From Bacteroidota bacterium (lineage in GTDB: Bacteria > Bacteroidota > Bacteroidia > Bacteroidales > VadinHA17), in assembly GCA_030596025.1 (NCBI GenBank), contig JAUVKW010000001.1, positions 1,603 to 65,602 of the forward strand: DNA of 64,000 nucleotides. Direction: 5' to 3'. The translations under genes were made by a program, and so were the position numbers. Shown here in pieces: positions 6,101-61,097 of this stretch. The notes beneath the pieces are model-generated. The model made no database searches and was not told where the DNA came from. It saw only the letters and a list, made by a program, of their open reading frames with translations. The first letter of the stretch is position 1. Every line of letters starts with the position of its first letter.

Positions 6101-6359
6101 ACGAAACTGAATTTACGTCTTTTATGCCTTTAACAGAACTAAAAAGTCCTTCCAGTTTCGAGGTAACTTCCTGTTCAATAACCCTTGCCGAGGCATCGTG
6201 CCAACTATAAGTTACCTCAATAGAAGGTAAAGCCCTTGATGGTTCAAGCTGAACATTCATAAGGGGGATAACACTTATGCCGATTAACATCAGCGCAACA
6301 AAAACCACAATCACCGAAAACGATGAAAACCTGCTTTTATCTGCGTCCTCTGCTTTCAA
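3195..6359 (-). CDS. RND (AcrB-type) efflux transporter permease subunit
   Basis: 1054-aa ORF with an N-terminal TM, two large soluble loops and two multi-TM bundles. TM4-type motif FGIIIDNSIVMIDHI. C-terminal bundle GLIPFVWAGQNEVFWFAFAVGAMGGLLFS. Confidence 0.85.
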   Translation of the reverse strand: MKAEDADKSRFSSFSVIVVFVALMLIGISVIPLMNVQLEPSRALPSIEVTYSWHDASARVIEQEVTSKLEGLFSSVKGIKDVNSVSYRGRGKINLTFKKNLNLDAVRFEIATIIRRTYPNLPKQLSYPEITLGTRGQNVRPILSYNLNASASPYYIQKYAENNISPLLSPIPGLNEVKIYGANPYEWEVKFNVDQIHILNIKPQEIVSAINTHFQKELIGMGSVKTPGHDFTEKISIVLQTYIAENESWNKIPVKKSGGRIIYLSDIATIRYKEQPPHAYYRINGLNTINLVLYPEEGINNIKLARDVKEKMADISQNLPGGYSVLLSYDSTEFIEKEIKKIALRTLFSMLILLLFVLLISRQFRYLLLISVSLVANLVIACIFYYLFKIEIHLYSLAGITVSFGIIIDNSIVMIDHIRHHRNKKVFLAILAATLTTIGALSMLFFLEESQRINLIDFAEVIIVNLSVSLLIALFFIPALMDKISLVAGRKIAFLKRKRRVVRISGFYERSILFSKRFKWAYYLIFILGFGIPVHWLPETIENENYLSQLYNKSIGSNWYQQNARSLTEKIFGGTLRLFSEHVFESSFYSSPQKTTLFVRGTMPEGSTIHQLNEAVKKMENHISSYNEVDLFQTSITSYRNSSISINFKPEFEKGYFPYFLKGELTSKAINLGGLDWSIYGVGRGFSNAINTGYKNSHIIFDGYNYDQLIAYAGVLKKKLLENPRIHEVDITGPGNWWRIASLHEFFIGFDRKQFGLQEITLIDFYNSLRDRVYRANLKPVYVKGELNPVTLVSDRAETFNVWDLKNRPASIQNKLYKQGYLAEINKQKTGSDIYKYNQQYRIDVAYDFIGPGKLSAIVMEKHIDEMNALLPLGYKASKRGWGSWWDSKDKKQYYLLLLIILIIYFICSILLESLLQPLAIVGMIPISFIGVFLTFYLFDFNFDQGGFASFILLSGIVVNAGLYIINDYNHFCRERNTRKNLKLYLKAYNHKIVPVFLTVISTIIGLIPFVWAGQNEVFWFAFAVGAMGGLLFSFIAVVVYLPLFLRLEADKID

Positions 6360-6479
6360 TTTATTTTTATGTTTCTTGAGAATCCCTTATTATTCATTCA
6401 CTCATTTATTTATCCTCTCCTACATTTCATGCCGGCAGGAGTATTTGTCTTATGTATGCTTTCGCCTTAAGCCCTGCTA

Positions 6480-7646
6480 TTATAATCTTTTTAAAAACCT
6501 GTTCCATTTAATTTCTTTACGATTTTTTGAAAAAAGAATTAATACAGCTTTTCCTACAATATTTTGCTCCGGCACAAAACCCCATGCTCTTGAATCATTT
6601 GAATGGTACCTGTTATCCCCCATCATGAAATAATAATTCTGATTAACAGTAAAGTTTGTAATCCCGGTATTTTCAATTATAGAATGCCCATTCCCCATTT
6701 CAGGAGCAAATTTTTCAAATTTGTTGAATGTCTCAGTATAGATATTAGAGTTTTTACCATTAAGAATTATCTTGTACTCCTTTCCCGGAATCATTATGGG
6801 CCCATAACTATCAGTTGTTGAGAATGATTCAAGCATCCCGGTGTAATTATTATTCAAATCTGTCTTAATTGTTTTAACAACAACAGAATCAACCACAGAA
6901 GTTTTTTCTAACTGATTTTTTTGACCTTTTGTAAGATTTAACTCTACAAAGCCATTTTGTTTCCTTACCCATAGCCCAAACTTTTGAATACCAAGGCTAT
7001 CGGCCAGGGATCTAAAGGAATTTAAGTTGTTATACCAAATCATATATGAAAACCTGGAATACAGGGGATCTTCCTGCTTTTTGCCGTTTATGTATACCTG
7101 TGATCGAATAACCTGAATTGTATCTCCCGGCAGGGCCACACAACGTTTAATAAACACATCATCCCCAACAAAAGGAGGTTGAAAAACAACAATATCTCCT
7201 CTGTTAATTTTAGAATATCCATTCAAACGACGATAATGCCACCATGTTGAATCTGATTTTGCCCTTGATTTCTTATTCAGATAAAAAAATACATTAAACC
7301 AGGGAATTTCAAAGGGTGAACGAGGCAATTTCGGGCCATAGTTTAATTTACATACCAATACTTTATCACCCGGTATTAAAGTGTTTTTCATTGAGCCTGT
7401 TGGGATAGAATAAATTTCAAATATGAATACACGCATGCTGACAGCCAGCACCAAAACTCCAGCAAAAATCATAACATATGATAGTACTTTCTGATTACCT
7501 AAGTATTTAGTAAAGTTCAGTTTTGATGTGAACAGTATAAACAGAGCACATATTAAAACAAAACCTATTGCCAGCCAGGCTAATCCTATAATCAGCAAAA
7601 CAACTGCAACAGATATTAGCAAAATGATATTAATTCTCCGCTTCAT
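6480..7646 (-). CDS. lepB: signal peptidase I (paralogue 1)
   Basis: 388-aa ORF with N-terminal TM segments. SPase I boxes: IPTGSMKNTLIPGDKVLV (Ser box), FIKRCVALPGD (Lys box), GDNRYHSNDSRAWGFVPEQNIVGKA. Confidence 0.9.
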   Translation of the reverse strand: MKRRINIILLISVAVVLLIIGLAWLAIGFVLICALFILFTSKLNFTKYLGNQKVLSYVMIFAGVLVLAVSMRVFIFEIYSIPTGSMKNTLIPGDKVLVCKLNYGPKLPRSPFEIPWFNVFFYLNKKSRAKSDSTWWHYRRLNGYSKINRGDIVVFQPPFVGDDVFIKRCVALPGDTIQVIRSQVYINGKKQEDPLYSRFSYMIWYNNLNSFRSLADSLGIQKFGLWVRKQNGFVELNLTKGQKNQLEKTSVVDSVVVKTIKTDLNNNYTGMLESFSTTDSYGPIMIPGKEYKIILNGKNSNIYTETFNKFEKFAPEMGNGHSIIENTGITNFTVNQNYYFMMGDNRYHSNDSRAWGFVPEQNIVGKAVLILFSKNRKEIKWNRFLKRL

Positions 7647-7689
7647 TTGTTTAGATTCGGTTCGATTTTTATTTTGGTGGAAATGGGTG

Positions 7690-7734
7690 AATGATACAAT
7701 GATTAATGATACAATGATTAATGCTACAATGATT
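7690..7734. repeat. 3 x 15-nt tandem repeat (AATGATACAATGATT, third copy AATGCTACAATGATT)
   Basis: Read directly from the sequence. Lies in the 183-nt gap between the RND permease (7830..10955) and lepB (6480..7646). Confidence 0.9.
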
Positions 7735-7829
7735 TTTACTATTTACTATAAGTTGAATTTTTTGCTTTTGACATTATTTTGATTATTCAATTTATAGGAT
7801 GAACCTTAAAGTTATTGCTATAAAGTTTG

Positions 7830-10800
7830 TTACTTTTTCAAGTAATAGTAAAATAAGGGGATGAAATACAAACTTACCATTGTACCAACAATCATACCTC
7901 CAATAACTGCCAATGCCAGTGGTTTCTGCAGATCGGCGCCAAGTCCGGTAATAAACAGAAATGGCAAGAGAGCAAGAATAGTGGTTAAACTGGTCATTAT
8001 TATTGGTTTAAACCTTCGTTGGCCGCCTACAACCAATGCTCTCATAAGAGAATAACCCTGGTTACGCAAACGATTAATGGTGTCGATTTTTAAAATTGAA
8101 TCATTAATAATGATACCGCTCATTACAATGATACCAATAAGGGACATTAAGTTTATGCCTGCTCCAAACAGCTTTAATAAAAGAAATACTCCGAAAACGT
8201 CAACAGGCACCTCTATTAGAACAATAAGAGGTAAAGAAAGTGATTCAAACTGTGAAGCCAGGATAAAATAAAGAAGCAAAAGAGAAATGCCAAGAATAAC
8301 CGCAAGCTGCTTTAAAAGTTTTTCACTTGTAAAGATGCTTCCACTAAAACCTGCCTCAAAATGCCGGTCTTCATTTAAAGTATTACGTATGCCTGTAATC
8401 ACTTTATCAGCATCGCTATTGTTTACCTGTATTGGCAAAGGGTAATATTCACCTTCAGGCCCGGCCACAATAATTTTTAAATCGTAGTTTTTTTCTACAC
8501 TAATAAGGCTGCGTAAGGGAATATTATCTCCATTGCTATTCATCACCATAGTTCTTGAAATAATATCATTTATCAATTTGGGCTTCTCACCCAAAACTAC
8601 CGGAATAAAATACTGGCTTCTTGTAATCAGCAATATTTCATTCTCACTCAAAGCACTTTTTATTTTTCGGTGCAATGCTTCAAAAGACACATCATAGGTC
8701 ATTAATTTCAGTGGATCTGCTTTCAATAAAAGATTTTCCTGCCAGGCTACCTGCTGTAATTGACTATAACTTATTTCTTTTCGCATTTTATCAATAGTCG
8801 TCTTCAGAAATATGTTATAATCAGGGCCAAAGTCTTCTGTTGAGCGCAAACGGGCAACCAGGGGCGGTTCATTATCTGAAAATATCAGGTTAAAAACATT
8901 TCCCGCCTCCTTAATATTTATTATTGCAATAGGATATTTACTATTTATGAATTGAGTAGCATCGTTAACAATTGCCTGTATTTCATCAGGAAATTCGGCT
9001 TTAACATAAACCAATGCTTCTGAAGCCGTTTCATCCGAGCTATAGTCAAGAAGAAACTGCTGTTCGCCAATCATACATGTAGATTGAACAGGCTTAACTT
9101 TTATATTTGCTAATAATTCCTGTATCCTTCTGTTATTTTCATCAACATGAATTCTCTCGTTCCATTCAATCCCTATCATTATTTCACTTCGGGAGAGTGG
9201 AGGGAAGCTGTCTTTTGGCAGTTTGAAATACAACAAAACAACACCCATTAGCATAAGAAAAAACAGTATCCATGCGTAGCCCTGATTTTTCATAATTAGC
9301 CGGAATCCCTTTTCGTATATTGCTTCATAATTCAATGTATTTATTCTGGAAAGAAGATTCTTTTTATTTGTTTCTAATTGTTTGTTGTAGAACAATTTAT
9401 AATAAGTGGGCAAAAGAGTTATTGACACAAGGAGTGAAACAATCAGTCCAATAGCAATAGCCATTGCCTGATCATAAAATAATGCACCGCTTATACCCTG
9501 CACAAATATCAAGGGTATAAAAACGGCGCATGTTGTAAGCACCGCACTTAACAAAGGCCTGAATACCTCATTTGTTCCTGACACACATGCCTGAATAAGA
9601 TGGCTTCCCCGTTCACGGTATTGAGTAATATTGTCAATTACTATTATCGAATTATCAATCATCATTCCAACACCCAGTATCAGACCTGATAATGAAATAA
9701 TATTTATCGAAATATCTGCCAGGTAAAATATAAGCAGAGATATAACAATTGAGGCGGGTATGGTAATTCCTACCAGAAAAGGAGCCCTGAAATCTTTTAA
9801 GAAAAAGAACATGATCAGGAATGCTAAAGATGCTCCAAACAAGAGGCTTTTACCAAGATTTGAGATGGTATAATCAAGCAAAAGGGTTTGATCTCTTGTT
9901 ATTTTAAATTCAATATGCGGATAATCTTCAATCAGATGGTCAATGAGTTGGTACAATTTATCTTTTAGCTCGCTCATTTGTGCATCAGACTGTTTAATAA
10001 CAGCCATTGTGATAGCTTCTTTCCCGTCGGATGTCACCATCCCCGTTCGCTTTTGAACATGTTCAATAACCCGGGCAATGCTTTTGAATTGAATAAGCCT
10101 GTCACCTGCTTTAATGTATATATTTTCAATATCGTGTTTGTTTTTCAGAGTTGAGGCAAATCTGATATTGTATTGGTATTGCCCGTCCCGAATGAGAAGA
10201 TTCCCCAGATTAATATTGTTCTTACGTATGGTTTGCTCAATGGTGGCCAAATTAATTCCCAGTGATTCCGCTTTTTTCATATCGGGTATGATCAGTAATT
10301 CGGGATAAACCTGTCCGCTGATATCTACCATTGCAACCTCGGGCAATTGTTCAATACGCTTACTTATAACCTGACCGGCAAATCTGCTTAATTCTATAAA
10401 CTTTTGAGAAACCGGGAAGATATTCTTTGATGTTTCCGGTTGTTGGTTTATGCTTTCTTGTCCATCGCTTAATGATTGTTCCCGTCCCTGTGCTCTGTGC
10501 CCTGTGCTCTGTGCCCTGTGCTCTTTCAATGTCAGGTTTAGATAAAATACCGGTATATCGGATGCACTGGCTTTAATAACCTCTGGCCGGTTTAATTTGC
10601 GTGGTAACCTGTTCATTGCCCTGTCGATTTTTTCATTTACTTCGATAAAGGCAAAATCAACATCAGTGCCATAGTCAAAATCAAGATGGATAAGGGCATT
10701 TCCATCACGCGTTTCACTTTTAATATCAGATAAATGTGAAACCTGCATCAGTTGTCTTCGTAAAGGTTTTACCACCGTGTTTTCCAATTCCCTTGCTGAA

Positions 10801-10955
10801 GTGTTTGATTCGCTAAAGTGAACGGTAATTTTCGGAATATCAATATCGGGCATTAAGGATACCGGTATCTGGAATGACGCAGCTATACCCAAAACCAATA
10901 TGGCAATAAAGATCATGGTGACGGCTATGGGTCTATTTATTAAAAACCTTACCAT
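7830..10955 (-). CDS. RND (AcrB-type) efflux transporter permease subunit
   Basis: 1041-aa ORF. N-terminus MVRFLINRPIAVTMIFIAILVLG is typical of AcrB-family pumps. TM4 motif GVGMMIDNSIIVIDNI. 12-TM, two-loop layout. Contains a low-complexity insert EHRAQSTGHRAQGREQS. Confidence 0.9.
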   Translation of the reverse strand: MVRFLINRPIAVTMIFIAILVLGIAASFQIPVSLMPDIDIPKITVHFSESNTSARELENTVVKPLRRQLMQVSHLSDIKSETRDGNALIHLDFDYGTDVDFAFIEVNEKIDRAMNRLPRKLNRPEVIKASASDIPVFYLNLTLKEHRAQSTGHRAQGREQSLSDGQESINQQPETSKNIFPVSQKFIELSRFAGQVISKRIEQLPEVAMVDISGQVYPELLIIPDMKKAESLGINLATIEQTIRKNNINLGNLLIRDGQYQYNIRFASTLKNKHDIENIYIKAGDRLIQFKSIARVIEHVQKRTGMVTSDGKEAITMAVIKQSDAQMSELKDKLYQLIDHLIEDYPHIEFKITRDQTLLLDYTISNLGKSLLFGASLAFLIMFFFLKDFRAPFLVGITIPASIVISLLIFYLADISINIISLSGLILGVGMMIDNSIIVIDNITQYRERGSHLIQACVSGTNEVFRPLLSAVLTTCAVFIPLIFVQGISGALFYDQAMAIAIGLIVSLLVSITLLPTYYKLFYNKQLETNKKNLLSRINTLNYEAIYEKGFRLIMKNQGYAWILFFLMLMGVVLLYFKLPKDSFPPLSRSEIMIGIEWNERIHVDENNRRIQELLANIKVKPVQSTCMIGEQQFLLDYSSDETASEALVYVKAEFPDEIQAIVNDATQFINSKYPIAIINIKEAGNVFNLIFSDNEPPLVARLRSTEDFGPDYNIFLKTTIDKMRKEISYSQLQQVAWQENLLLKADPLKLMTYDVSFEALHRKIKSALSENEILLITRSQYFIPVVLGEKPKLINDIISRTMVMNSNGDNIPLRSLISVEKNYDLKIIVAGPEGEYYPLPIQVNNSDADKVITGIRNTLNEDRHFEAGFSGSIFTSEKLLKQLAVILGISLLLLYFILASQFESLSLPLIVLIEVPVDVFGVFLLLKLFGAGINLMSLIGIIVMSGIIINDSILKIDTINRLRNQGYSLMRALVVGGQRRFKPIIMTSLTTILALLPFLFITGLGADLQKPLALAVIGGMIVGTMVSLYFIPLFYYYLKK
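10486..10524 (-). repeat. about 2.8 copies of a 14-nt tandem repeat (plus strand CCCTGTGCTCTGTG) inside the RND coding sequence
   Basis: Read directly. On the coding strand it reads GAGCACAGGGCACAGAGCACAGGGCACAGAGCACAGGG and encodes ..EHRAQSTGHRAQG.. within the first periplasmic loop region. Confidence 0.85.
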
Positions 10956-10983
10956 ATTTCCGTTTTGTTGTTTTTCTTAATCA

Positions 10984-11672
10984 CGTTTCTATGGTTTCTG
11001 TTGTTCCTGTAGTTTCTATGGTTTCTATGGTTTCTATGGTTTGAATTTAGTTCCCTTGAATTCTGATTTAGAAAGATACTGCATCATGTTGTTTGTTTTT
11101 CTACCCAAAACAATTGTTTTTTCTGAAAATTCATCAAATTCATTTTGAGATATATAATTTCGGTCGAATGCACGATAGAGCTGCGATCTGGTTTCTCCAC
11201 ATGACCCTTTTGCAATCGATAGAAAGTTTCGAAATTCTTTGTTCCCTCCGCGTTCGAATCCCTCTGCAATATTATCCATGGTTGATCCGCTTGAGGCTCT
11301 GATTTGATCTCTCAGACGAAAATCTTTTGAAAACTTTTCCTTTAAAGTAAGCTCGAAAACATCAATACTTAACTGCCTGGCAAACTGCCATATCTCCAAA
11401 TCCTCAAAACGTTTAACAGTTGCCATTATTTTTAAAAATTGATCTATGATCTTAAAAACATAAAAAAATATACACTAGGAACAACAGAAACAAGTTCCTA
11501 TTGTTTATGTTGTTCCTCTTGTTTGAATATAATACCTGGAAGGCTATCATATTTCCAATTTCTCAATTAGTTTTACCATTACCATTTGTTCCCAAAAGAA
11601 TTGTATTATTATAAAAAATCATTGAACATTAAACAACAGGAACTATAGGAACTAAATAAACCAAAGGAACAT
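10984..11672. repeat. inverted-repeat (rRNA-IVS-like) element enclosing the four-helix-bundle gene
   Basis: Left arm 10984-11040 is made of GTTTCTATGG/GTTGTTCCT words. Right arms at 11475-11525 and 11631-11672 carry the reverse-complement words. A perfect 15-bp inverted repeat, GTTTCTGTTGTTCCT (10994-11008) / AGGAACAACAGAAAC (11477-11491), brackets the ORF. Confidence 0.55.
11034..11426 (-). CDS. four-helix-bundle protein (23S rRNA intervening-sequence protein family)
   Basis: 130-aa ORF. FEDLEIWQFARQL...DQIRASSGSTMDNIAEGFERGGNKEFRNFLSIAKGSCGETRSQL matches the family pattern I recall (PF05635 type). Confidence 0.85.
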   Translation of the reverse strand: MATVKRFEDLEIWQFARQLSIDVFELTLKEKFSKDFRLRDQIRASSGSTMDNIAEGFERGGNKEFRNFLSIAKGSCGETRSQLYRAFDRNYISQNEFDEFSEKTIVLGRKTNNMMQYLSKSEFKGTKFKP

Positions 11673-12749
11673 TTATTTAATAATTACCTCCGACTCGTGC
11701 GCCAAATTCAGGTTACCTGAAATAATTACTGTATCTCCGGGAGCAAGTGTGCCGCCTTTATCAGGATGTGCCTGCACGGTATATGAATTGCTGTTTTCGA
11801 ATTCGGTTTGCACGTAAGTCCAGAAGGCTTGCCCGTTTTTGTATACAAACAATACTTCCTGGTTCTGGCGTAATACTACGGCTGACTTTGGTACAACCAG
11901 GCGGTCAGGCACCCTGGTTTCAAGCAACACTTCTACATTCATGCCTTCCATAAGCATACCTGTATTCTTAATAACTGCTTTAACTCTTATCATACCATTT
12001 TCTTCAACCACAGGATTAATTTCACAAACCTTTCCATAAACTATTTCATCATTTATAAAAGGAATAATTTTAACCTCTTTACGCAATTCAATTTCTTTTA
12101 ATTCAGTTTCAAGTACTGAAAACTCAACCTCAAATGCCGATTCATCAATAAGTGTGCAGAACTCTTCTCCGGGACTAACCACATCGTGTACTTTGTGTTT
12201 TAAATTAGCTATAACTCCCGTGAACGGGGCTTTCAAAATGGTGGAGTTGTAGTTAAACTTTGCCGTTTCAAGGCTGTTCATGGCATCTAATAGCCCCGAG
12301 CGTATTTTTGCGCTTTTCACAATGTTTTCAGGAGGTTGCTTATTTCCTGAATTATAACCCATTAGAACAATAACATCCTTGTATTCAACTTCGGCTTTTT
12401 GTATTTGAAACTCAGCTTTTTCGAGTTCCTGCTCCTGATTAAACCTGAAAAGGCGTGCTATAACCTGGCCCTTATATACTTTATCGCCATTTTTATAGGC
12501 CAGATATTCCAGTTCCTCACTAATACGAAACCGGAGGATGCTTTTTCTCAGGGCAATAAGCTTTCCATTGCTTACCAGTTCCTTACTGAAATCGGTTTCC
12601 TTAAGTACTATTACATCAACGGGGTTGCGTTCAGGACTATGGTTCAGTTTGCCGGTATCCTGATCCTCCCCGCCTTGATTTGTTGAGCATTGGCTAAAAA
12701 CAAGTATAAGTAAAAATATCAGTATGTTTCTCATATTCAATTTGGTCAA
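11673..12749 (-). CDS. efflux RND transporter periplasmic adaptor (membrane fusion protein)
   Basis: 358-aa ORF with lipoprotein-type signal LILVFSQCS. HlyD/AcrA-like layout with a coiled-coil region and LKAPFTGVIANL lipoyl-type motif. Lies upstream of the RND permease on the same strand. Confidence 0.8.
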   Translation of the reverse strand: MTKLNMRNILIFLLILVFSQCSTNQGGEDQDTGKLNHSPERNPVDVIVLKETDFSKELVSNGKLIALRKSILRFRISEELEYLAYKNGDKVYKGQVIARLFRFNQEQELEKAEFQIQKAEVEYKDVIVLMGYNSGNKQPPENIVKSAKIRSGLLDAMNSLETAKFNYNSTILKAPFTGVIANLKHKVHDVVSPGEEFCTLIDESAFEVEFSVLETELKEIELRKEVKIIPFINDEIVYGKVCEINPVVEENGMIRVKAVIKNTGMLMEGMNVEVLLETRVPDRLVVPKSAVVLRQNQEVLFVYKNGQAFWTYVQTEFENSNSYTVQAHPDKGGTLAPGDTVIISGNLNLAHESEVIIK

Positions 12750-12826
12750 CCATTTATAACATTGATAATAAAGATAACCTTTTTAGGAATTTTGACCGGA
12801 TAATCTGAAATAATATTACCAGAAAG

Positions 12827-13264
12827 CTATTCCTTTTTTACGTCACCATATATTTTAAGAGTTATAGGATTGGGCCTTGTATTAGCAATTACATTTATAC
12901 TTTTATGAAAGTGTCCAATATCACTTGCATTGTAGATTACTCTGATTGTGCCAGCCTTGCCAGGCTTAACTGTTTTCTTTGGCCATACAGGTAAAGTACA
13001 ACCACATGAGGCACGCACTGTATGAATTATTAAAGGGAATTCACCAGTATTGGTAAAACTAAATACAGCTTCTTTGGGTTGATTAAAGATTAAAGAACCC
13101 ATATTTATTGTTTTTGAATCAAACGAGATTGCAGTTGAGTTTTTTATTCCACCTGCTATTTCATATTTCTCATTATTTGAAAAGAACTGCAATAACAAAA
13201 ATAATGATATGATCACAAAGGCAGTAATTATTAACCAAAATAAGGTATTTTGTTTCTTTGACAT
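12827..13264 (-). CDS. DUF1573-like membrane-anchored protein
   Basis: 145-aa ORF with an N-terminal TM. Motif RASCGCT...PGKAGTIRVIYNA is characteristic of DUF1573 (from memory). Confidence 0.7.
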   Translation of the reverse strand: MSKKQNTLFWLIITAFVIISLFLLLQFFSNNEKYEIAGGIKNSTAISFDSKTINMGSLIFNQPKEAVFSFTNTGEFPLIIHTVRASCGCTLPVWPKKTVKPGKAGTIRVIYNASDIGHFHKSINVIANTRPNPITLKIYGDVKKE

Positions 13265-13576
13265 AGCAAACTAAATATGACTTATAAATCTATTGTTCTT
13301 CTTTTTTAAACAAGTTTAAGTAAATCTCCATCTCACGGTTTTTTGCGGCGCAATGACTTTAAACTTTTATCTTTTCCTACCAAACTCTGTCAGGTCTTCC
13401 TTCCCTGCAAGTTTTAGCGCAGACTCTGACAGGTTTTACTTTATTCCGGTTAATAAAAAGCAATCTTAAGAATTATTGTAAGCCATAATTACTTAAATCA
13501 TAAATCAGTGTTCCTTGTTCAGTATTCAATATGAAATTTACTAAACATGTTGCATAAATTTTCATTCATTATCCCA

Positions 13577-14623
13577 TTATTTGATTTTCATGAACATCCT
13601 GTTCCATCTTATTTTTCTTATACCCTTTTTATCAGGATTGAGTGAAAACAAAACAAAACATGCTTTACCAATAATGTGATCTTCGGGTACAAATCCCCAG
13701 TAGCGGGAGTCGTTTGAAGCATCACGGTTATCGCCCAGCATAAAATAGTAGTCTTGATTAAATCCATAATTACTGATAAGGGTATCATTTATCTTCCATT
13801 CCCCACTGTTATTTATTATGCCGGCATGTTCAAACATTTTCAATATCTTCTTATAAAGTATAACATCGTTTTCATCCGGCATTATTTTTAATTCCTTGCC
13901 CGGTATTATAAAAGGCCCCATATTATCGAGTGTCCATGAATAGCGTTCGTGCCATGGATAATACTGTGTTGTAAAGTCATCTGTTTTAATGCCGGAGGTT
14001 AAAGAATCAATACCTGCTAATCCGGATAATTGCTTTTTTTGACGTCTTGTAAGTTTTATCTCCCTAAAGCAGTCCTGTTTTGTTGTCCACCAGTCATAAA
14101 CCGGAATATTCAGGCTATCAGTTATTATACTAAAACTGCTGATACTATTATACCATACACGATAGACTTTTTTTGATTCAACAGGTGGAGACTGAAGCCG
14201 GTTTTTTATGAAAACGTCTGAATCAATAATCTGAAAAGTATCACCCGGCAAAGCTATGCAACGTTTAATAAATGTCTTGTTATTGTTATCAGGGAACTGA
14301 AAAACAATAATATCACCCCTGTTTATTTTCGAGAAGCCGGATAAACGTTTATATTTCCACCATGTAGTATCAGCTTTGGCTCTTGCTTTTTTATTCAGGG
14401 AAAACACAACATTCAGCCATGGTATCTCAAAAGGTGATCGGGGTAACTTCGCTCCGTAATTTAATTTACTGACAAGTATTTTATCGCCAGGTCGGAGTGT
14501 ATTTGCCATTGAACTTGAAGAAATAGTATAGATCTCAAACAGAAATATATGTAGGCATACAGCCAAAAGTATTATCCCTAAAAACAAGCATATATGATAA
14601 ATTACTTTTTGTATTCGGAACAT
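13577..14623 (-). CDS. lepB: signal peptidase I (paralogue 2)
   Basis: 348-aa ORF. Boxes SSSSMANTLRPGDKILV, FIKRCIALPGD, GDNRDASNDSRYWGFVPEDHIIGKA. Long blocks are near-identical to the 6480..7646 product, e.g. KLNYGAKLPRSPFEIPWLNV and INRGDIIVFQ. Confidence 0.9.
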   Translation of the reverse strand: MFRIQKVIYHICLFLGIILLAVCLHIFLFEIYTISSSSMANTLRPGDKILVSKLNYGAKLPRSPFEIPWLNVVFSLNKKARAKADTTWWKYKRLSGFSKINRGDIIVFQFPDNNNKTFIKRCIALPGDTFQIIDSDVFIKNRLQSPPVESKKVYRVWYNSISSFSIITDSLNIPVYDWWTTKQDCFREIKLTRRQKKQLSGLAGIDSLTSGIKTDDFTTQYYPWHERYSWTLDNMGPFIIPGKELKIMPDENDVILYKKILKMFEHAGIINNSGEWKINDTLISNYGFNQDYYFMLGDNRDASNDSRYWGFVPEDHIIGKACFVLFSLNPDKKGIRKIRWNRMFMKIK

Positions 14624-14812: not shown

Positions 14813-15850
14813 TCATTGTAAAATACTCAAATCATAAATTACAAAAGGCTGACGATCAAACCAATTTAAACCTATCAAAGTTTTGTCATTGTCTGTGATA
14901 ATTATATTGCTCAAACCAATATCCAGGTCAATCTCATACAATGCTTCTCCCTCCCATGAAAATACATGTAGTTTATTTCCAATTCCTGCAATTGCAGTTA
15001 TGAAATCCTTACCACAATAAATAGCATAGATAAATTTGGAGGTAGTAAATACATCAATATAGTGAAAAACAGTTTTATCATCCAAAAAACTATGTGAATC
15101 TTTTGAAAATATTGGTTCTATCTGGTTTTCCGGCTGTATTGAAGTCCTCAAAGATAAGTCATTGTTATATATATCTATTTGCTTAAAATACCGTAAAGCA
15201 CTGACAAATACCTCCCGGGGATAATTGTAATCATTTATAGCATAGAATATTTGTCCTAAATGTAATTGATTTTTTGTTTCGCGTTGCTTAAAAAACAGAT
15301 CATCAACAGTATAGTTTATCTTTCTTGTTTCCAGATTAAAATTAAATATTCTAAATTTCCCTGATGTGGTAGAACCAATAATGGTATTGCTGTTCAAATA
15401 AAGAAGGTTAAAAGGAATTATTAACTCAACCGGATAAACAATTTTCGTATTAGGTTCATAATAAGGAACGCTGATCATACTATCAAGATCATACTTTTTT
15501 GTGATGTATCTATCTGTCACAACCAAATGATTATTATGCAAGCGTTTACTAAGATCAGGCCCCTGAAATTCGCCAGGGCCCTTCCCCTTGATGCCAAAGG
15601 ATTTCATAAGTTTATAGTTATTTCTGATAACTACATGAAATAATTTCTCCGTTTTGAAATCAGATACCACGATCAATGAATCTAAAAGAACCATTTTCCT
15701 TGGTTCAAGGAAATGGTCCACAGGTCCTACCTTTGTTCCATTGAGTTTAAAGGTTTTATTAAAACCTGAATAATACTTAATTTTTTTATCAGTGGTCTTG
15801 CATGATGATATAAGCGCTAAAATTATTATACTAAAAATTATTTTTTTCAT
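14813..15850 (-). CDS. 6-bladed beta-propeller lipoprotein (BF3164-like family)
   Basis: 345-aa ORF with lipoprotein signal ILALISSC. Motif FGIKGKGPGEFQGP, and a C-terminal blade ..LHVFSWEGEALYEIDL.. ending ..FVIYDL. Family recalled from Bacteroidales annotations. Confidence 0.6.
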   Translation of the reverse strand: MKKIIFSIIILALISSCKTTDKKIKYYSGFNKTFKLNGTKVGPVDHFLEPRKMVLLDSLIVVSDFKTEKLFHVVIRNNYKLMKSFGIKGKGPGEFQGPDLSKRLHNNHLVVTDRYITKKYDLDSMISVPYYEPNTKIVYPVELIIPFNLLYLNSNTIIGSTTSGKFRIFNFNLETRKINYTVDDLFFKQRETKNQLHLGQIFYAINDYNYPREVFVSALRYFKQIDIYNNDLSLRTSIQPENQIEPIFSKDSHSFLDDKTVFHYIDVFTTSKFIYAIYCGKDFITAIAGIGNKLHVFSWEGEALYEIDLDIGLSNIIITDNDKTLIGLNWFDRQPFVIYDLSILQ

Positions 15851-16355
15851 CAGTCTTGAATTTTTTAATTAGGTTTTTTTGTTTCCTTGCTACTTTAGGA
15901 TTTAAATGAGGTGATCCACAGTTTTTAATTATACTATCAGGTCCAACGAGGACACAGTTACTTTGTTTTAGTTTTAAAATACCAAGTTCATTCATTTTAA
16001 TAAACTTATCTGCCTGATCATATAGTATAGGAAACTCAAATGAATTAATTTCATTTATATGGGATTGTGCAAATTCAGAATCCTGTCCGGTTAGAATAAC
16101 CACAAACTGTGTTTCTTCCATAGATCCTTGCTGTAAATAAGCATCTAATCTATATATTTCTTCAATACATGTCGGACAGCTTGCGTTTAAACACAGCAAA
16201 ACATTAAAGCTATTTGATTTCTTATGCTTACAACTATTATATTGTTTAAGACTATCGATGGGATAAATTATTTTCTTACCTACCAGGTAGTCTGTAGAAG
16301 TATTATCAGTACAACCAAGTAATAATATTACAATAAGAAAGTAAACTTGTTTCAT
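15831..16355 (-). CDS. thioredoxin-fold (TlpA/redoxin-like) CxxC lipoprotein
   Basis: The track ORF is 15831..16412. I prefer the internal Met at 16355, which gives the lipoprotein signal MKQVYFLIVILLLGC. The CxxC motif sits in FNVLLCLNASCPTCIEEIYRL (strand-CxxC-helix layout). The gene overlaps the downstream propeller gene by 20 nt. Confidence 0.55.
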   Translation of the reverse strand: MKQVYFLIVILLLGCTDNTSTDYLVGKKIIYPIDSLKQYNSCKHKKSNSFNVLLCLNASCPTCIEEIYRLDAYLQQGSMEETQFVVILTGQDSEFAQSHINEINSFEFPILYDQADKFIKMNELGILKLKQSNCVLVGPDSIIKNCGSPHLNPKVARKQKNLIKKFKTDEKNNF

Positions 16356-16387
16356 AGAATGAACATATTTATTATTATTTTTATATA

Positions 16388-16601
16388 CTATTCCGGTTCC
16401 TCCTGGTTGCATAAATCTTTACCCTGATAATTCCAAGACTGACACATACAATTACAACAAACCTTAGCCAGGCTCTGTACAAGTCCTATAACCCTGGCAC
16501 CAACACTCAGAAGCTTGTACAGGCTTTGGTTTAAGGATTGATAAACTAATTCCAATAATTGTAACAAGAATTGCTAATCCAAAATAAATTTTCTTTTTCA
16601 C
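16388..16601 (-). pseudogene. frameshifted or truncated paralogue of the 71-aa Cys/Trp-rich peptide gene (not in the ORF track)
   Basis: Hand translation from GTG at 16601 gives VKKKIYFGLAILVTIIGISLSILKPKPVQASECWCQGYRTCTEPG, with a stop at 16464-16466. The +1 frame continues KVCCNCMCQSWNYQGKDLCNQEEPE, with a stop at 16388-16390. It aligns with the 16700..16915 product at both the signal (..ISLLTLQPKPAEAAWCSWGYRS) and the tail (QCVACNCLQWDHTGRTSCPDGPIQE). It has a 2-nt deficit relative to that paralogue around CCTGGCTAAGG. Confidence 0.6.
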
Positions 16602-16663
16602 AACTAATTAATTTTGCTATTAAACAATTTCTATAAAGTTAAAACTGCAAATTATTTAATAGT

Positions 16664-16699: not shown

Positions 16700-16915
16700 T
16701 TACTCTTGAATTGGTCCATCAGGGCAGCTAGTTCTACCTGTATGATCCCATTGTAAACAATTACAAGCAACACATTGTCCTGGCCATGATGTAGTAGACC
16801 TATAACCCCATGAACACCAAGCAGCTTCCGCTGGTTTTGGCTGAAGAGTTAATAAACTAATTGCAATTATTACAACAAGAGTTGCTATGCCGATAAATAT
16901 TTTCCTTTTTTCCAT
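16700..16915 (-). CDS. small secreted Cys/Trp-rich peptide (71 aa precursor)
   Basis: Signal peptide with a predicted SPase I site, PKPAEA|AW. The roughly 40-aa mature part AWCSWGYRSTTSWPGQCVACNCLQWDHTGRTSCPDGPIQE has 5 Cys and 4 Trp. A paralogue lies directly downstream. Confidence 0.65.
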   Translation of the reverse strand: MEKRKIFIGIATLVVIIAISLLTLQPKPAEAAWCSWGYRSTTSWPGQCVACNCLQWDHTGRTSCPDGPIQE

Positions 16916-16985
16916 AACAAAAAATTTTATATTATTAATAATTTTCAGCTTTATTTAAAAACATATTAAATCAATAAGTATCTTT

Positions 16986-17388
16986 GCTCCCGAAAGGGGA
17001 GCTACCAGAACTGGAGTCTGAATACAAATGGTTGAAGGTTATGGTGTGTTTTCCCTTTCACTATTATTAATTGTTTCTAAAGTTTCTATTGTTCCTCTGG
17101 TTCCTGTTGTTTCTATGGTTTCTTTGATTTCTGCTGTTTTCTCATTATTTCCCGGCACATCATGTTTTTAGTATATGAAATTTTATCAAATCACAGACAA
17201 AAGGAACTACAGAAACCATAGAAACAACATGAACTTTTTTTTATTCATTTAATCATTATTTCTTATGGTTTATATTACTTAATCCGGTGAGAATTGGATT
17301 TATTCCCAAAAAAGATATTTATTTTTCAACATTTTGATAGTTTAGATAGACTCTAAATATAAGGTAGGGATGATCAGTAAGATATGGA
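16986..17388 (-). repeat. conserved non-coding element, copy A (upstream module + word hairpin + about 110-nt peptide-proximal module)
   Basis: Two modules, 16986-17095 and 17275-17388, match 19530-19640 and 19725-19838 with 5 and 7 mismatches by eye. The central hairpin arms are TGTTGTTTCTATGGTTTCT (17105-17123) and AGAAACCATAGAAACAACA (17211-17229). The element fills the whole gap between the upstream gene stop (17411) and the peptide start (16915). Confidence 0.8.
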
Positions 17389-17410: not shown

Positions 17411-17920
17411 TTAGTTTACAAATAGTGAAAACAAATGGCTTAAAGATCTGTCATCATTAATTTCATTTTTTTCTGTAATACTGTTTCCTTGTATTACAAA
17501 ATAATACGGGTATTCTAGAATTGCTTCTGGAAAGAACGCTTTTCCAATATTATCTTCTGTATCAATATATATTTCATTACAATAGTCCATTTTTTCATCC
17601 AGATAATACTGCATAGTTACTATATCTATAGTATTTATCACACATAGTAGCTGAATGTTAGATCGCTTTTTTTCAGGTTCTACCTCAGCCAATTCTTCTT
17701 TTATTGCATCTATCTGACTTAAACAAAATCCACAAATTTCAGGGTAGTAGATTAATACGGTAGTATGATCTTGTGGTATATTAAGCGATCTAATCTCATA
17801 GACCTGATTTTTCCTAATAACTGTAAAACTCCATGAACCAGGTATATTGAAGGACTCTGATGTGCAACCTGTTACCACAATAAATATTGAGAGCAATAAT
17901 TGAAATATAGCTCGTTTCAT
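17411..17920 (-). CDS. thioredoxin-fold CxxC lipoprotein
   Basis: 169-aa ORF with lipoprotein signal SIFIVVTGC. CxxC motif in TVLIYYPEICGFCLSQIDAIKEEL. The start overlaps the stop of the upstream propeller gene (shared base at 17920). Confidence 0.5.
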   Translation of the reverse strand: MKRAIFQLLLSIFIVVTGCTSESFNIPGSWSFTVIRKNQVYEIRSLNIPQDHTTVLIYYPEICGFCLSQIDAIKEELAEVEPEKKRSNIQLLCVINTIDIVTMQYYLDEKMDYCNEIYIDTEDNIGKAFFPEAILEYPYYFVIQGNSITEKNEINDDRSLSHLFSLFVN

Positions 17921-18990
17921 TATAGTTTTACTTCATATTTAACCATTCTGAGCGAATTTGTTTCGTTCTTATCATCCTCAACAATAGCATAAATAATATG
18001 GATATTACCATCTCTTTTTACAGTATATAGAACTATTGGGAAATCAAATGAAAGATTTGTGATATGCTTACCTTGCCAATTATATACTTGCATTATATTT
18101 GGGTAGTTTATCTTATTATTCAACAGATCATTCAATTTTCCTTTTCCAAAAACAGAAAAAATAAATTTGTTACTTACCGCACAACCCATAAAACCAATGA
18201 TACTACCTTTACAAGCTGCAGTTGACCAGTGTTTACCCATACGAAAAACTTCAAAACATGGTGGGAACTCTGGTTGGTAATTTGGGTTTATCCTTAAAAA
18301 AGAATCTCCCTTTTTCTCATAAATTTCAATGAGATCGCTTTTGGGAATAACTGTAACAAATAGTGGTTTACTTGGATGAGAACAGATCTTTCCATCATAG
18401 CCATCAGCAAGTTGAATATTGCTCATCTCTCTATTAAACTCGCTATCCGGGAAATCACCAAAAGTATATAGCAATTTCCCCTTATTACTGAAAAGACCAA
18501 AACGTCCATGTTTAAACGTTCCTGTCACTATGAAATAGGATTTATTAAAAGGAACAAATTGTATTGGCCAGCCCTCGCTTCGATCTACAATAAATAAGCT
18601 TTTACTATTGTTTTGACCTTTATTGATATCATTCAATGAAATAGAATTATAGTCCCCTTTCATTATATCATAAGAATTTAAAGATCTATTACTGAAATTA
18701 AAGGATGGTGAAACGGCAGATAACATTTCACCAGGGCCTCTTCCTTTTATGCCAAATGAAATACATTTTCCGTGTGTCAAATCAATTAAATCAAAAAAAA
18801 TATCAGTTTGTCCGTTCAAAATAATAAACTTGTTATCACCAGCTAGTAATAAACCGTGTGGATCTTTAATATCCTCAGGTGGGATATTTATTTCAGTATG
18901 TTCTAAATGAATAAGCTGAATCTCATTTTTCTTACTATTTGAACAAGAGATAAATAAAAATAAAAGTAAAAAATGTATGAATGATTTCAT
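17920..18990 (-). CDS. 6-bladed beta-propeller lipoprotein (BF3164-like family)
   Basis: The track ORF extends to 19065. The internal Met at 18990 gives the lipoprotein signal MKSFIHFLLLFLFISC. Motif FGIKGRGPGEMLS. C-terminal blade MQVYNWQGKHITNL. Confidence 0.6.
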   Translation of the reverse strand: MKSFIHFLLLFLFISCSNSKKNEIQLIHLEHTEINIPPEDIKDPHGLLLAGDNKFIILNGQTDIFFDLIDLTHGKCISFGIKGRGPGEMLSAVSPSFNFSNRSLNSYDIMKGDYNSISLNDINKGQNNSKSLFIVDRSEGWPIQFVPFNKSYFIVTGTFKHGRFGLFSNKGKLLYTFGDFPDSEFNREMSNIQLADGYDGKICSHPSKPLFVTVIPKSDLIEIYEKKGDSFLRINPNYQPEFPPCFEVFRMGKHWSTAACKGSIIGFMGCAVSNKFIFSVFGKGKLNDLLNNKINYPNIMQVYNWQGKHITNLSFDFPIVLYTVKRDGNIHIIYAIVEDDKNETNSLRMVKYEVKL

Positions 18991-19193
18991 CTTAAAATAA
19001 TGGTTATCAGCATAATAAGAGACTGCTTTCAATATTAATACTTTAAAAACATTTGTAATTTTCATTATTGTTCTTTTTGATTTTCTTATTTCTATTTTGA
19101 ATATGTTTCTTTATGAAATCTTCATCAACTTGTAAATGCTTACAAAATATCCTTTTCTCAACCTGTAAATTTCTCTATAGTGAAATAAGAATT

Positions 19194-19472: not shown

Positions 19473-19529
19473 AATTTTATTTATTAAAAATTAATAATTT
19501 GTTTTAATTACAATTTTGATATTAATTTT

Positions 19530-19838
19530 GCCCCGGAAAGGGGAGCTACCAGAACTGGAGTCTGAATACGAATGGTTGAAGGTTATGGTGTGTTTTCCCT
19601 TTCACTATTAATAAATGTTTCTAAAGTTTCTATTGTTCCTATGGTTCCTACAAAAGGAACTACAGGAACAATAGGAACTCTCCTTTTAACATTCTATCAT
19701 TTGCTCATTCCATCATTGTCTCCATTACTTAATCCGGTGAGAATTGGATTTATTCCCAAAAATGAGATTTATTTTTCAACATTTTGATAGTTTAGATAGA
19801 TCCTAAATATAAGGTGGGGGTAATCAGTAAGATATGGA
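19530..19838 (-). repeat. conserved non-coding element, copy B
   Basis: Same two modules as copy A. The central hairpin is reduced to CTATTGTTCCTATGGTTCCT (19630-19649) / AGGAACTACAGGAACAATAG (19655-19674): 20 positions with 1 mismatch, 1 G-U pair and a 5-nt loop. The track ORF 19572..19787 is a translation of this repeat. Confidence 0.8.
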
Positions 19839-19841
19839 GAC

Positions 19842-20150
19842 CTATTTCAAAGCGGCTTCCAGGTTATAAACAAAAATTTTATCAATCTCCACCCTATCAA
19901 TACAATACAGCTTCTTATCGTCCTTTGTTACATCAAATGTGAATATTGGATTATTCATATTTAGCTTAACCACAGGATTTCCATCCCAATCCCATATCTC
20001 TATGGAAGGGTTGGTTTCAAGCAATTTATCGGAATGCTCATTCATGCACATCGCATAAATGTATTTATTTGAAACTTTTACTACACGATAATAAATCATA
20101 CTGGTACCTCTTTTCCGTTTAGGATCAAAGATGTCTTTATTTATCATCAT
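19842..20150 (-). pseudogene. orphan C-terminal fragment of a 6-bladed beta-propeller gene
   Basis: The 102-aa ORF has no signal peptide. ..IEIWDWDGNPVVKLNMNNPIFTFDVTKDDKKLYCIDRVEIDKIFVYNL parallels the last blades of the 345-aa and 381-aa propellers (..VFSWEGEALYEIDL.., ..VYNWQGKHITNL..). Its stop abuts the end of element copy B. Confidence 0.5.
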
Positions 20151-21675: not shown

Positions 21676-21836
21676 TGAATGAATGGGTGAATGGGTGAAT
21701 GAGTAAATGCGTGAATCATACCAATTTATTATTTTAACATTCTCACATTTTAGCATTCTATCATTTCAACATTCCATCATTTTAACATTCTGTCATTTTA
21801 GCATTTTAGCATTTTAGCATTCCTTCATTCCATACC
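21676..21836. repeat. word-repeat inverted block (TGAATG words, then CATTC/CATTTTAGC words)
   Basis: 21676-21718 reads TGAATGAATGGGTGAATGGGTGAATGAGTAAATGCGTGAATCA. 21735-21836 holds degenerate CATTCT/CATTTTAGC units, including 3 tandem GCATTTTAG copies. The two blocks are roughly reverse-complementary in word content. Confidence 0.7.
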
Positions 21837-60771: not shown

Positions 60772-61038
60772 CTTTGCTCCAAATAAATTTTAAAGCTTCG
60801 AATATAATTGGAGTCAAAAGTAGAACTTTCTAACAAATTATGAAAAGTTGATTGATGAATTTCAAAGAAATGCAATAATTCTCTACGGCCTGCCGGGTGC
60901 CCTCTGCTGGATTTTTGAGTTTTGGAATTTTCTGTTTTGCCCTTACCTAATCTTTCTCTCTTTCGCCTTGTCGCTCCTTCGCCCCCTGCGCCTCTTCTCT
61001 TTCCCTCTTTTTCCTCGTAGCTCTTCCCTCCTTGCCAA

Positions 61039-61097
61039 CTGCCGACTGCCGACTGCTTACTGCTTACTGCTTACTGCTTACTGCTTACTGCTTACTG
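61039..61097. repeat. heptamer tandem array: 2 x CTGCCGA + 6 x CTGCTTA
   Basis: Read directly. Embedded in a pyrimidine-rich (plus strand) low-complexity element, 60940-61183, immediately 3' of aspS. The track ORFs 60848..61168 and 61032..61289 are translations of it. Confidence 0.9.

Follow-up and report, generated by a model that had tools for sequence, protein, structure and literature searches.

What keeps two intergenic segments of one bacterial chromosome nearly identical when the coding DNA around them is far more diverged, its proteins only 22-28% identical or unrelated? The question is raised by a 64,000 nucleotide (nt) stretch from a Bacteroidota bacterium (GenBank assembly GCA_030596025.1, contig JAUVKW010000001.1, positions 1,603 to 65,602), called the window throughout, in which one element occurs twice on the minus strand (copy 1, 17388-16983; copy 2, 19838-19527), each time ahead of a small peptide gene. 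The minus strand carries all genes around the element, which therefore has to be read as the reverse complement. On balance we favor the view that the repeat is the common 5' leader of peptide-propeller-thioredoxin-like cassettes in uncultured Bacteroidota, acting as a translated leader-peptide switch. Each copy holds a 19-codon upstream open reading frame (uORF) whose stop codon is fused to a hairpin; what the sequences compared here show directly is this architecture and how well it is kept, where it lies relative to genes, and the mosaic identity of its copies.

Two copies of the element and their relatives

A sequence-only reading of the window had described the repeat as a non-coding element with peptide-proximal and distal modules, and its alignments hold up on recounting: the proximal match has 5 mismatches in 110 nt (16986-17095 vs 19530-19639), the distal match 7 in 114 nt (17275-17388 vs 19725-19838). 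A repeat search extends them to 123 nt at 95% identity (16983-17105 vs 19527-19649) and 124 nt at 91% (17265-17388 vs 19715-19838), respectively, and the two-copy alignment gives the anatomy of the element as distal module, inverted arrays of 9 nt units in the middle, and proximal module, the last ending 57-70 nt from each start codon as had been stated. The downstream peptides, already called unrelated, give no alignment whatever in pairwise comparison; the propellers of the two cassettes share 22% protein identity, and their thioredoxin (Trx)-like proteins show no significant pairwise alignment. Because the flanking proteins are far more diverged than the element, the repeat pair is neither a chance match nor a recent segmental duplication. 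The parts of the two leaders are:

17002-17061, minus strand: uORF of copy 1, GTG to TAG, 19 codons, encoding VKGKTHHNLQPFVFRLQFW and stop
16986-17002, minus strand: hairpin of copy 1, GCUCCC-CUUUC-GGGAGC, minimum free energy (MFE) -11.4 kcal/mol, z = -4.2
16916-16985, minus strand: AT-rich spacer of copy 1 from hairpin to main ORF, cassette-specific, beginning AAAGATA
16700-16915, minus strand: main ORF of cassette 1, a 71-aa peptide, signal-like at its N-terminus and Cys/Trp-rich at its end
19546-19605, minus strand: uORF of copy 2, same peptide, one synonymous difference (TTC/TTT, Phe12)
19530-19546, minus strand: hairpin of copy 2, 5 bp including one U.G
19473-19529, minus strand: spacer of copy 2, 100% identical to the orthologous spacer of locus L003
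19236-19472, minus strand: main ORF of cassette 2, a 78-aa peptide

Neither a sequence scan nor a search with the 381-aa propeller found the window organism or close relatives among GTDB representative genomes. Scans for CCAGAACTGGAGTCTGAATAC in genome contigs and for a 20-mer in metagenome contigs gave 0 matches each; the stretch chosen as anchor is the variable middle of the uORF, as was later seen. The 78-aa peptide has one homologue (P0002), 81% identical, in NCBI assembly GCA_034659155.1 ('Bacteroidota bacterium'); the region upstream of it (L003) carries a diverged proximal module, and comparing the window copies with it identified the conserved bases. The conserved 18-mer TCCAGTTCTGGTAGCTCC was then found at 36 loci in a metagenome scan. 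True homologues as judged by nhmmer amount to ~27 copies in ~21 loci, with 73-90% identity over ~90 nt and often two copies per contig; these loci are 18 from the 18-mer scan, L003, and two Logan contigs of the window's own organism (L001, L002). That organism is present in samples SRR18936874 and SRR18936875. About 19 of 39 18-mer loci were discarded as chance matches of 18-26 nt.

Several other searches were empty. A 71-aa plus-strand ORF across the element had no match and is called as a gene nowhere, and the cassette 1 peptide matched only itself. Rfam 15 gave 0 matches in the whole window at the gathering threshold and, at E<=10, only generic long-hairpin miRNA-type models lying on the stem formed by the 9-mer arrays. 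Literature searches (leader-peptide, uORF, NVEALA) found no description of the leader or of cassette regulation, and a search on RLQFW returned nothing relevant.

A 19-codon reading frame fused to a hairpin

The proximal module is not the non-coding DNA it was taken for: it contains a conserved ORF that switches start codons and keeps its stop. Exactly 19 codons lead to the same TAG in all 23 complete copies (18 distinct sequences), with the consensus M-K-G-K-T-H-x-x-L-x-P-x-x-F-[R/K]-[L/I]-Q-F-W, so written that the C-terminus reads F-[RK]-[LI]-Q-F-W-UAG with the hairpin directly after. Lineage variants are VKGKTHHNLQPFVFRLQFW in the window and MKGKTHIKLLPHTFRLQFW, MKGKTHHKLLPYSFRLQFW, MKKGTYHNFHPIHFKIQFW and MKGKNYTYEDQMAFKLQFW elsewhere. 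The first codon is only ever ATG, GTG or TTG; in L006, the most diverged copy, the ancestral start is gone and a 3 nt insertion and a new in-frame ATG are present, giving 14 codons (MKHKNLLLIKFQFW). The other two frames of the region contain stops. Conserved residues vary synonymously (T5 ACA/ACT/ACC, P11 CCA/CCG, F14 TTC/TTT, R15 AGA/AGG, K15 AAG/AAA), and QFW-stop is retained in three copies that lack the exact 18-mer, in one of them through a synonymous TTC>TTT at F18 (L012). The start context is A-rich: 22 of 24 copies carry A at -3, and A is enriched at -11 to -13. Such contexts have been reported to determine initiation in Bacteroidia, a class that makes no use of Shine-Dalgarno sites (PMC6847099). 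Frame, length, start and stop are kept across diverged homologues, as in a conserved uORF leader. The 18 distinct uORF sequences contain none of the known arrest motifs sought (W12-D16-P24 of TnaC, RAPP/RGPP and others).

The first base of the hairpin is the G, or third base, of the uORF's UAG. An MFE fold of the 24 nt that follow gives a GC-rich stem of 5-7 bp in the same register in all 24 distinct versions, enclosing a freely variable loop (CUUUC, GAA, UUCG, UAAAAA, CUAUU). One-sided stem changes produce G.U on the minus strand in 14 of 14 cases, where the other strand would have A.C. The small hairpin and the CCAGAACTGG palindrome of the sequence-only reading thus exist; the register shift it ascribed to the hairpin does not, the family alignment showing a single register that copy 2 keeps with a U.G wobble. 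Its suggestion of a structured cis-regulatory RNA or small RNA (sRNA) fares poorly, given that RNAalifold on 23 distinct copies finds nothing conserved beyond this hairpin and a 3 bp mini-stem in invariant columns: of 8 pairs, 0 show a compensatory double change, and the covariation term is -0.22 kcal/mol.

Two further structures were tried and rejected. Pairing at long range between the uORF start (GAAAGGG) and the loop (CCCUUUC) is impossible with GAA, UAAAAA or CUAUU loops and is not predicted by RNAalifold. Whole-region MFE folds are dominated by the 9-mer hairpin and are not conserved elsewhere.

Around half of the distinct copies have a TAA or TAG in frame exactly 8 codons past the UAG (…CAA AGA TAA), with the two preceding bases varying, as judged by eye; this second stop could be a back-up for read-through, or could reflect shared ancestry. 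Programmed read-through to the in-frame TAA was rejected since 1 nt loop indels break the frame in other copies. At L038 (10210-11619, plus strand) the uORF forms, in frame, the last codons of an upstream 469-aa ORF for a Wzy_C-type membrane protein, which is either an accidental fusion or a case of translation entering the leader from the upstream gene.

Position relative to downstream genes

An ORF of 60-90 aa starts on the same strand 73-109 nt past the UAG in 25 of 28 copies, and of the three exceptions one is at a contig end, one has too little sequence, and one (L036) is broken by an insertion. Across the family this spacer, from uORF stop to main ATG, is AT-rich and cassette-specific save for AAAGATA right after the hairpin. 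By eye, the N-terminus of the downstream ORFs is K-rich and is accompanied by a hydrophobic segment, to which most add an A-x-A site or an N-x-E-A-L-A-G-G leader; their ends vary greatly and contain many Cys and aromatic residues. The peptide ORF is followed by a 6-bladed propeller gene (PF15869, PF17170 or PF13970), a gene for a 170-200 aa CxxC protein and, often, the next leader; the gene order of cassette 2 in the window also follows the element in L030, L032, L027, L039 and L038. Given the fixed strand, distance and type of downstream gene, the element is placed as a leader and not as a randomly inserted repeat, which bears out the shared 5' leader proposed in the sequence-only reading.

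A search with the Bacteroidia consensus did not locate the shared promoter proposed along with it. Only one subgroup has, by eye, a promoter-like TTTG-N18-TTGATTTG ~70 nt ahead of the uORF, and a motif scan of that subgroup's loci gave the neighboring TTTTTTTG as a one-off match. In the spacers no consensus TAHHTTTG box recurs, some having -7-like boxes with one mismatch, and a sigma-70 scan gave fewer sites than in shuffled sequences.

Concerted evolution of the leaders

Paralogous leaders within the window are more alike than orthologous ones, and the relation reverses at the hairpin. Identities for copy 1 vs copy 2, and for copy 2 vs its L003 orthologue, are:

uORF: 98% and 82%
spacer: 57% and 100%
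main ORF: 52% and 84%

This switch point is a signature of concerted evolution, pointing to homogenization of the leaders within one genome by gene conversion with its breakpoint at the hairpin. It upholds the recombination boundary that the sequence-only reading had offered as an alternative, so that its interpretation as a whole is partly supported. Many near-identical MKGK[T/P]HIKLLPHTFRLQFW leaders precede different peptides in one metagenome, an observation in the same direction as gene conversion.

Two loci show rearrangements close to the leader. The leaders of L036 (1-2148) and L032 (1-70) match at every base up to 50 nt into the spacer, hairpin included; beyond that point L036 has an insertion with a 589-aa ORF where L032 has its peptide gene. 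In L003 a DDE transposase directly follows the peptide gene.

Proposed mechanism and alternatives

We infer the arrest of the ribosome, its control of the hairpin and the fate of the downstream message from sequence. The leader would act in cis. A ribosome ending the uORF would sit over its stop codon and the hairpin's 5' arm; a pause or arrest at the QFW-UAG end would keep the hairpin melted and the adjoining RNA covered, quick termination would allow the hairpin to form, and the state of the ribosome would in this way set read-through, stability or translation of the downstream message. The nascent peptide itself would bring about the arrest, on the model of TnaC, SpeFL and PepNL, with F-[RK]-[LI]-Q-F-W as candidate arrest or slow-termination motif. 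Since cassettes with unrelated proteins carry one and the same leader, the likely partner is the ribosome, and having the ribosome rather than a cassette-specific protein as partner would enable one leader to serve many unrelated peptides. A bolder form of the proposal, that the QFW-UAG uORF represents a new, Bacteroidota-native class of ribosome arrest peptide with a signal-dependent stall at its own stop, co-regulating diversified secreted Cys-rich peptides through the stop-fused hairpin and kept identical by gene conversion, we put forward tentatively, as a possibility with the odds against it.

Several observations weigh against a translated switch. That the uORF is translated at all is itself deduced. 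Over codons 2-14, the part not affected by ascertainment, the minimum numbers of changes at codon positions 1, 2 and 3 are 16, 14 and 17, a weak codon-position bias, and the synonymous fraction is barely higher in frame 0 than in frame 1; lacking a clear third-position excess, the middle of the peptide would be under no strong amino-acid constraint. Invariance at the C-terminus is largely ascertained, because LQFW-UAG together with the hairpin's 5' arm made up the search pattern. No U-tract follows the hairpin (AAAGAUA comes next), no alternative pairing of antiterminator type is conserved, and at 55-90 nt from the main start codon the hairpin is too distant to mask it. The canonical Bacteroidia promoter, with its TAHHTTTG -7 box, was not found upstream of most copies.

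The alternative that survives best, albeit an unlikely one, is that the uORF is an independent micro-gene whose 19-aa peptide is the product, be it a trans-acting small protein, a signal or a precursor resembling those of ribosomally synthesized and post-translationally modified peptides (RiPPs) such as PqqA/MftA, with the hairpin as 3' stabilizer or partial terminator and the downstream peptide gene served by its own spacer promoter. The ORF evidence supports such a gene as well as it does a leader peptide, the 73-109 nt spacer can hold a promoter and in some copies has a one-mismatch -7-like box, the spacer of copy 2 is fully conserved in L003, and a small precursor gene with a hairpin upstream of modifying enzymes is the established arrangement of pqq and mft loci. 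But the same peptide occurs across cassettes whose proteins are unrelated or 22% identical, for which a constant partner, the ribosome, fits better than cassette-specific enzymes; moreover, the peptide's middle evolves freely, the spacers lack a recurrent consensus box and the hairpin lacks a U-tract.

Next, and also improbable in our estimation, is a purely nucleic-acid element, in which the ORF is incidental to a promoter or operator (the CCAGTTCTGG palindrome), a structured leader RNA or sRNA, or both. A perfect 10 bp palindrome and a conserved hairpin, over which conservation is strongest, speak for it, as does the weak codon-position bias. However, the invariance of the palindrome is ascertained, as it lies inside the search 18-mer, and CCAGTTTTGG in L012 breaks the palindrome yet is synonymous in the ORF. 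Neither RNAalifold, by further structure or compensatory pairs, nor Rfam, by a match, supports an elaborate RNA, and on this explanation the fixed 19 codons, the switching confined to ATG/GTG/TTG, the A-rich start context and the L006 copy with its 3 nt indel and new ATG would all be unexpected.

The identity might instead reflect recent spread of a mobile or recombinogenic cassette boundary, either an insertion like a miniature inverted-repeat transposable element (MITE) or an attC-like site that shuffles peptide cassettes; we give this little credence. It draws on the sharp edges of the similarity, the several copies per contig, the mosaic identity with its breakpoint at the hairpin, Logan contigs that break at the element, the transposase adjoining the L003 copy and the insertion interrupting L036. 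Against this, by eye neither copy has terminal inverted repeats or target-site duplications at its ends, the downstream peptide gene follows in a fixed orientation and at a fixed distance, the loci share no recurrent recombinase gene, and blastn found no match to the element in a phage collection, while viral contigs gave nothing or only 20 nt chance matches. Mobility would also leave the conserved ORF features unexplained, whereas gene conversion is compatible with a translated leader.

Classical amino-acid attenuation, whereby the terminal Phe-Trp codons would sense charged tRNA for Trp/Tyr/Cys-rich peptides, is very unlikely: the uORF does end in F-W right before the hairpin and many mature peptides are, by eye, rich in Trp and other aromatics, but there is a single Trp and one adjacent Phe codon instead of tandem regulatory codons, no terminator/antiterminator pair or U-tract, and the downstream genes are not biosynthetic. 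The template and variable repeats of a diversity-generating retroelement (DGR) were rejected, with no reverse transcriptase search of the window made, the mismatches being mixed (A/T, T/C, G/C, A/G) rather than adenine-specific by eye and both copies intergenic.

Comparison with known leaders and repeats

TnaC of the Escherichia coli tna operon and SpeFL are short uORF products that stall the ribosome at, or close to, the stop codon of their own frame, TnaC requiring W12-D16-P24. PepNL and NanCL are short uORF peptides that do the same (PMC11890864). The leader of the cassettes resembles all four in having a short uORF (14-34 codons) whose product stays inside the exit tunnel, in conserving the C-terminal residues next to the peptidyl-transferase center with an arrest site, here a proposed one, at the stop codon, and in an untranslated spacer of ~100 nt or more before the regulated gene. 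It shares no sequence similarity with them, and PepNL ends in Asp and UGA where the present leader has UAG fused to a hairpin. The regulated genes also differ, being secreted peptides instead of catabolic or transport genes, arrest is here a prediction, and many homogenized copies occur per genome, in the phylum Bacteroidota.

Leaders of the trpL/hisL/pheL type, and the Rfam Bacteroid-trp leader, likewise combine a small leader ORF with a hairpin after it and let the position of the ribosome decide the RNA fold; they differ from the present element, which has no regulatory codon runs, a single hairpin without a U-tract, no conserved alternative pairing and no Rfam leader match. The translational attenuators of erm, cat and cml share a short leader peptide, a hairpin and regulation through a stalled ribosome. 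Their hairpin hides the ribosome-binding site of the next gene, unlike a hairpin 55-90 nt from the main start, in a class, Bacteroidia, where Shine-Dalgarno sites are not used (PMC6847099).

Repetitive extragenic palindromes and bacterial interspersed mosaic elements (REP/BIME), MITEs and integron attC sites resemble the element in being multi-copy, hairpin-forming, intergenic and sharply edged and in separating cassettes of the same orientation, but the element has a fixed orientation and distance and a conserved ORF, and it has no terminal inverted repeats, attC R/L core sites or nearby integrase. As to the cassettes, pairs of NVEALA or double-glycine peptides with a 6-bladed beta-propeller (DUF5128/TolB_like) offer a likeness, with small peptides, some bearing the N-x-E-A-L-A-G-G leader, next to PF17170/PF15869 propellers. 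To our knowledge this Bacteroidota pairing is known from database annotation only, and our literature search found no paper containing the term NVEALA.

If correct, the proposal would add a leader-peptide switch to Bacteroidota, a phylum that initiates translation without Shine-Dalgarno pairing and for which we know of very few ribosome-mediated cis-regulators. It would mean that one ribosome-sensing leader has been copied and kept uniform before many fast-evolving peptide genes, so that peptide cassettes in metagenomes could be found through the leader instead of the hypervariable peptide, and structural studies would gain a compact candidate arrest sequence of 19 codons. A caution also follows: a mini-ORF too short for gene callers can hide in a 95%-identical 'non-coding' repeat.

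Gene order and cassette contents

The remaining features of the two cassettes and their upstream neighbor, in order of transcription, are:

21477-20182, minus strand: propeller gene, first in transcription order
20150-19842, minus strand: C-terminal propeller fragment, 102 aa, TolB-like C-terminal blades only (PF15869 positions 234-295)
19227-19191, minus strand: terminator-like hairpin after the 78-aa peptide gene, from the terminator scan
17920-19065, minus strand: propeller of cassette 2, TolB-like 6-bladed (PF15869, E=4e-19)
17411-17920, minus strand: CxxC/Trx-like protein of cassette 2, 169 aa
16601-16464, minus strand: second peptide gene of cassette 1
15831-16412, minus strand: redoxin-like protein of cassette 1
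14813-15850, minus strand: TolB-like propeller of cassette 1

The intrinsic terminator scan reported only 19227-19191 and 18733-18706, not the leader hairpin. The 102-aa ORF at 19842-20150 (minus strand) is a gene remnant ending 3 nt short of element copy 2, and its place at the upstream edge of the leader suggests a past rearrangement there. The 71-aa peptide of cassette 1 looks, by eye and without alignment, like the peptides that the element precedes in L039 and L016. After it, the second peptide gene (16380-16610, minus strand) has no leader of its own and appears frameshifted: the frame with the signal-like N-terminus (16601-16464) ends early, and the Cys-rich end (...CCNCMCQSWNYQGKDLCNQEEPE) lies in the +1 frame (16567-16388).

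The cassettes adjoin genes for two S26 signal peptidases, a DUF1573 protein, an HlyD adaptor and two AcrB-type pumps (3195-14623, minus strand). Homologues of the DUF1573, signal peptidase and HlyD adaptor genes were seen by eye after cassettes in L032, L037, L039 and L035, which suggests a conserved island whose predicted role is peptide processing and export.

Distal module and short tandem repeats

The upstream half of each element copy consists of:

17265-17388, minus strand: distal module of copy 1, starting 22 nt past the stop codon of the Trx-like gene that precedes it
17062-17264, minus strand: inverted arrays of 9 nt units (AGRAACNNN and complement), a long hairpin upstream of the uORF of copy 1
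19715-19838, minus strand: distal module of copy 2, starting 3 nt after the stop of the propeller gene fragment
19606-19714, minus strand: 9-mer inverted-array hairpin of copy 2, with a 5 nt loop

The distal module was not found in any other homologous locus; it and the 9-mer hairpin, whose loop is ~90 nt longer in copy 1 than in copy 2, are lineage-specific, and the module is possibly a promoter region. It contains a 10-codon mini-ORF, MLKNK[Y/S][L/H]FWE-stop (17300-17332 and 19750-19782, minus strand), whose TAA overlaps the 5' arm of a hairpin AAUCC-N10-GGAUU, an ORF-stop-hairpin layout that, with F-W near the end, matches that of the 19-codon uORF. There are two copies only, and both of their differences are non-synonymous.

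Tandem AGRAACNNN units number 19 in the window against 0.09 expected, and are confined to four intergenic sites, which immediately precede both uORFs, lie ~30 nt before the start codon of an AcrB pump gene, and flank a four-helix-bundle gene (coordinates 10985-11035(-), 11477-11491(+), 11638-11652(+), 17073-17123(-), 17202-17225(+), 19617-19649(-) and 19655-19678(+)). Similar units precede the uORF in L030, L012, L014, L003 and L039, as seen by eye. The four-helix-bundle gene (11034-11426, minus strand; PF05635, TIGR02436; 130 aa) encodes a protein of the 23S rRNA intervening-sequence type and is inserted between the gene for HlyD and that for AcrB; the inverted 9-mer arrays on either side of it recall the inverted repeats around rRNA intervening sequences. 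The gene is Avd-like and lies 6 kb from the element. Other intergenic tandem arrays of 7-8 nt units lie at 7690-7734 (AATGATAC), 21680-21822 (TGAATGGG and CATTYTAR) and 61033-61097 (ACTGCTT), and short tandem repeats seem to be general in the intergenic DNA of this genome.

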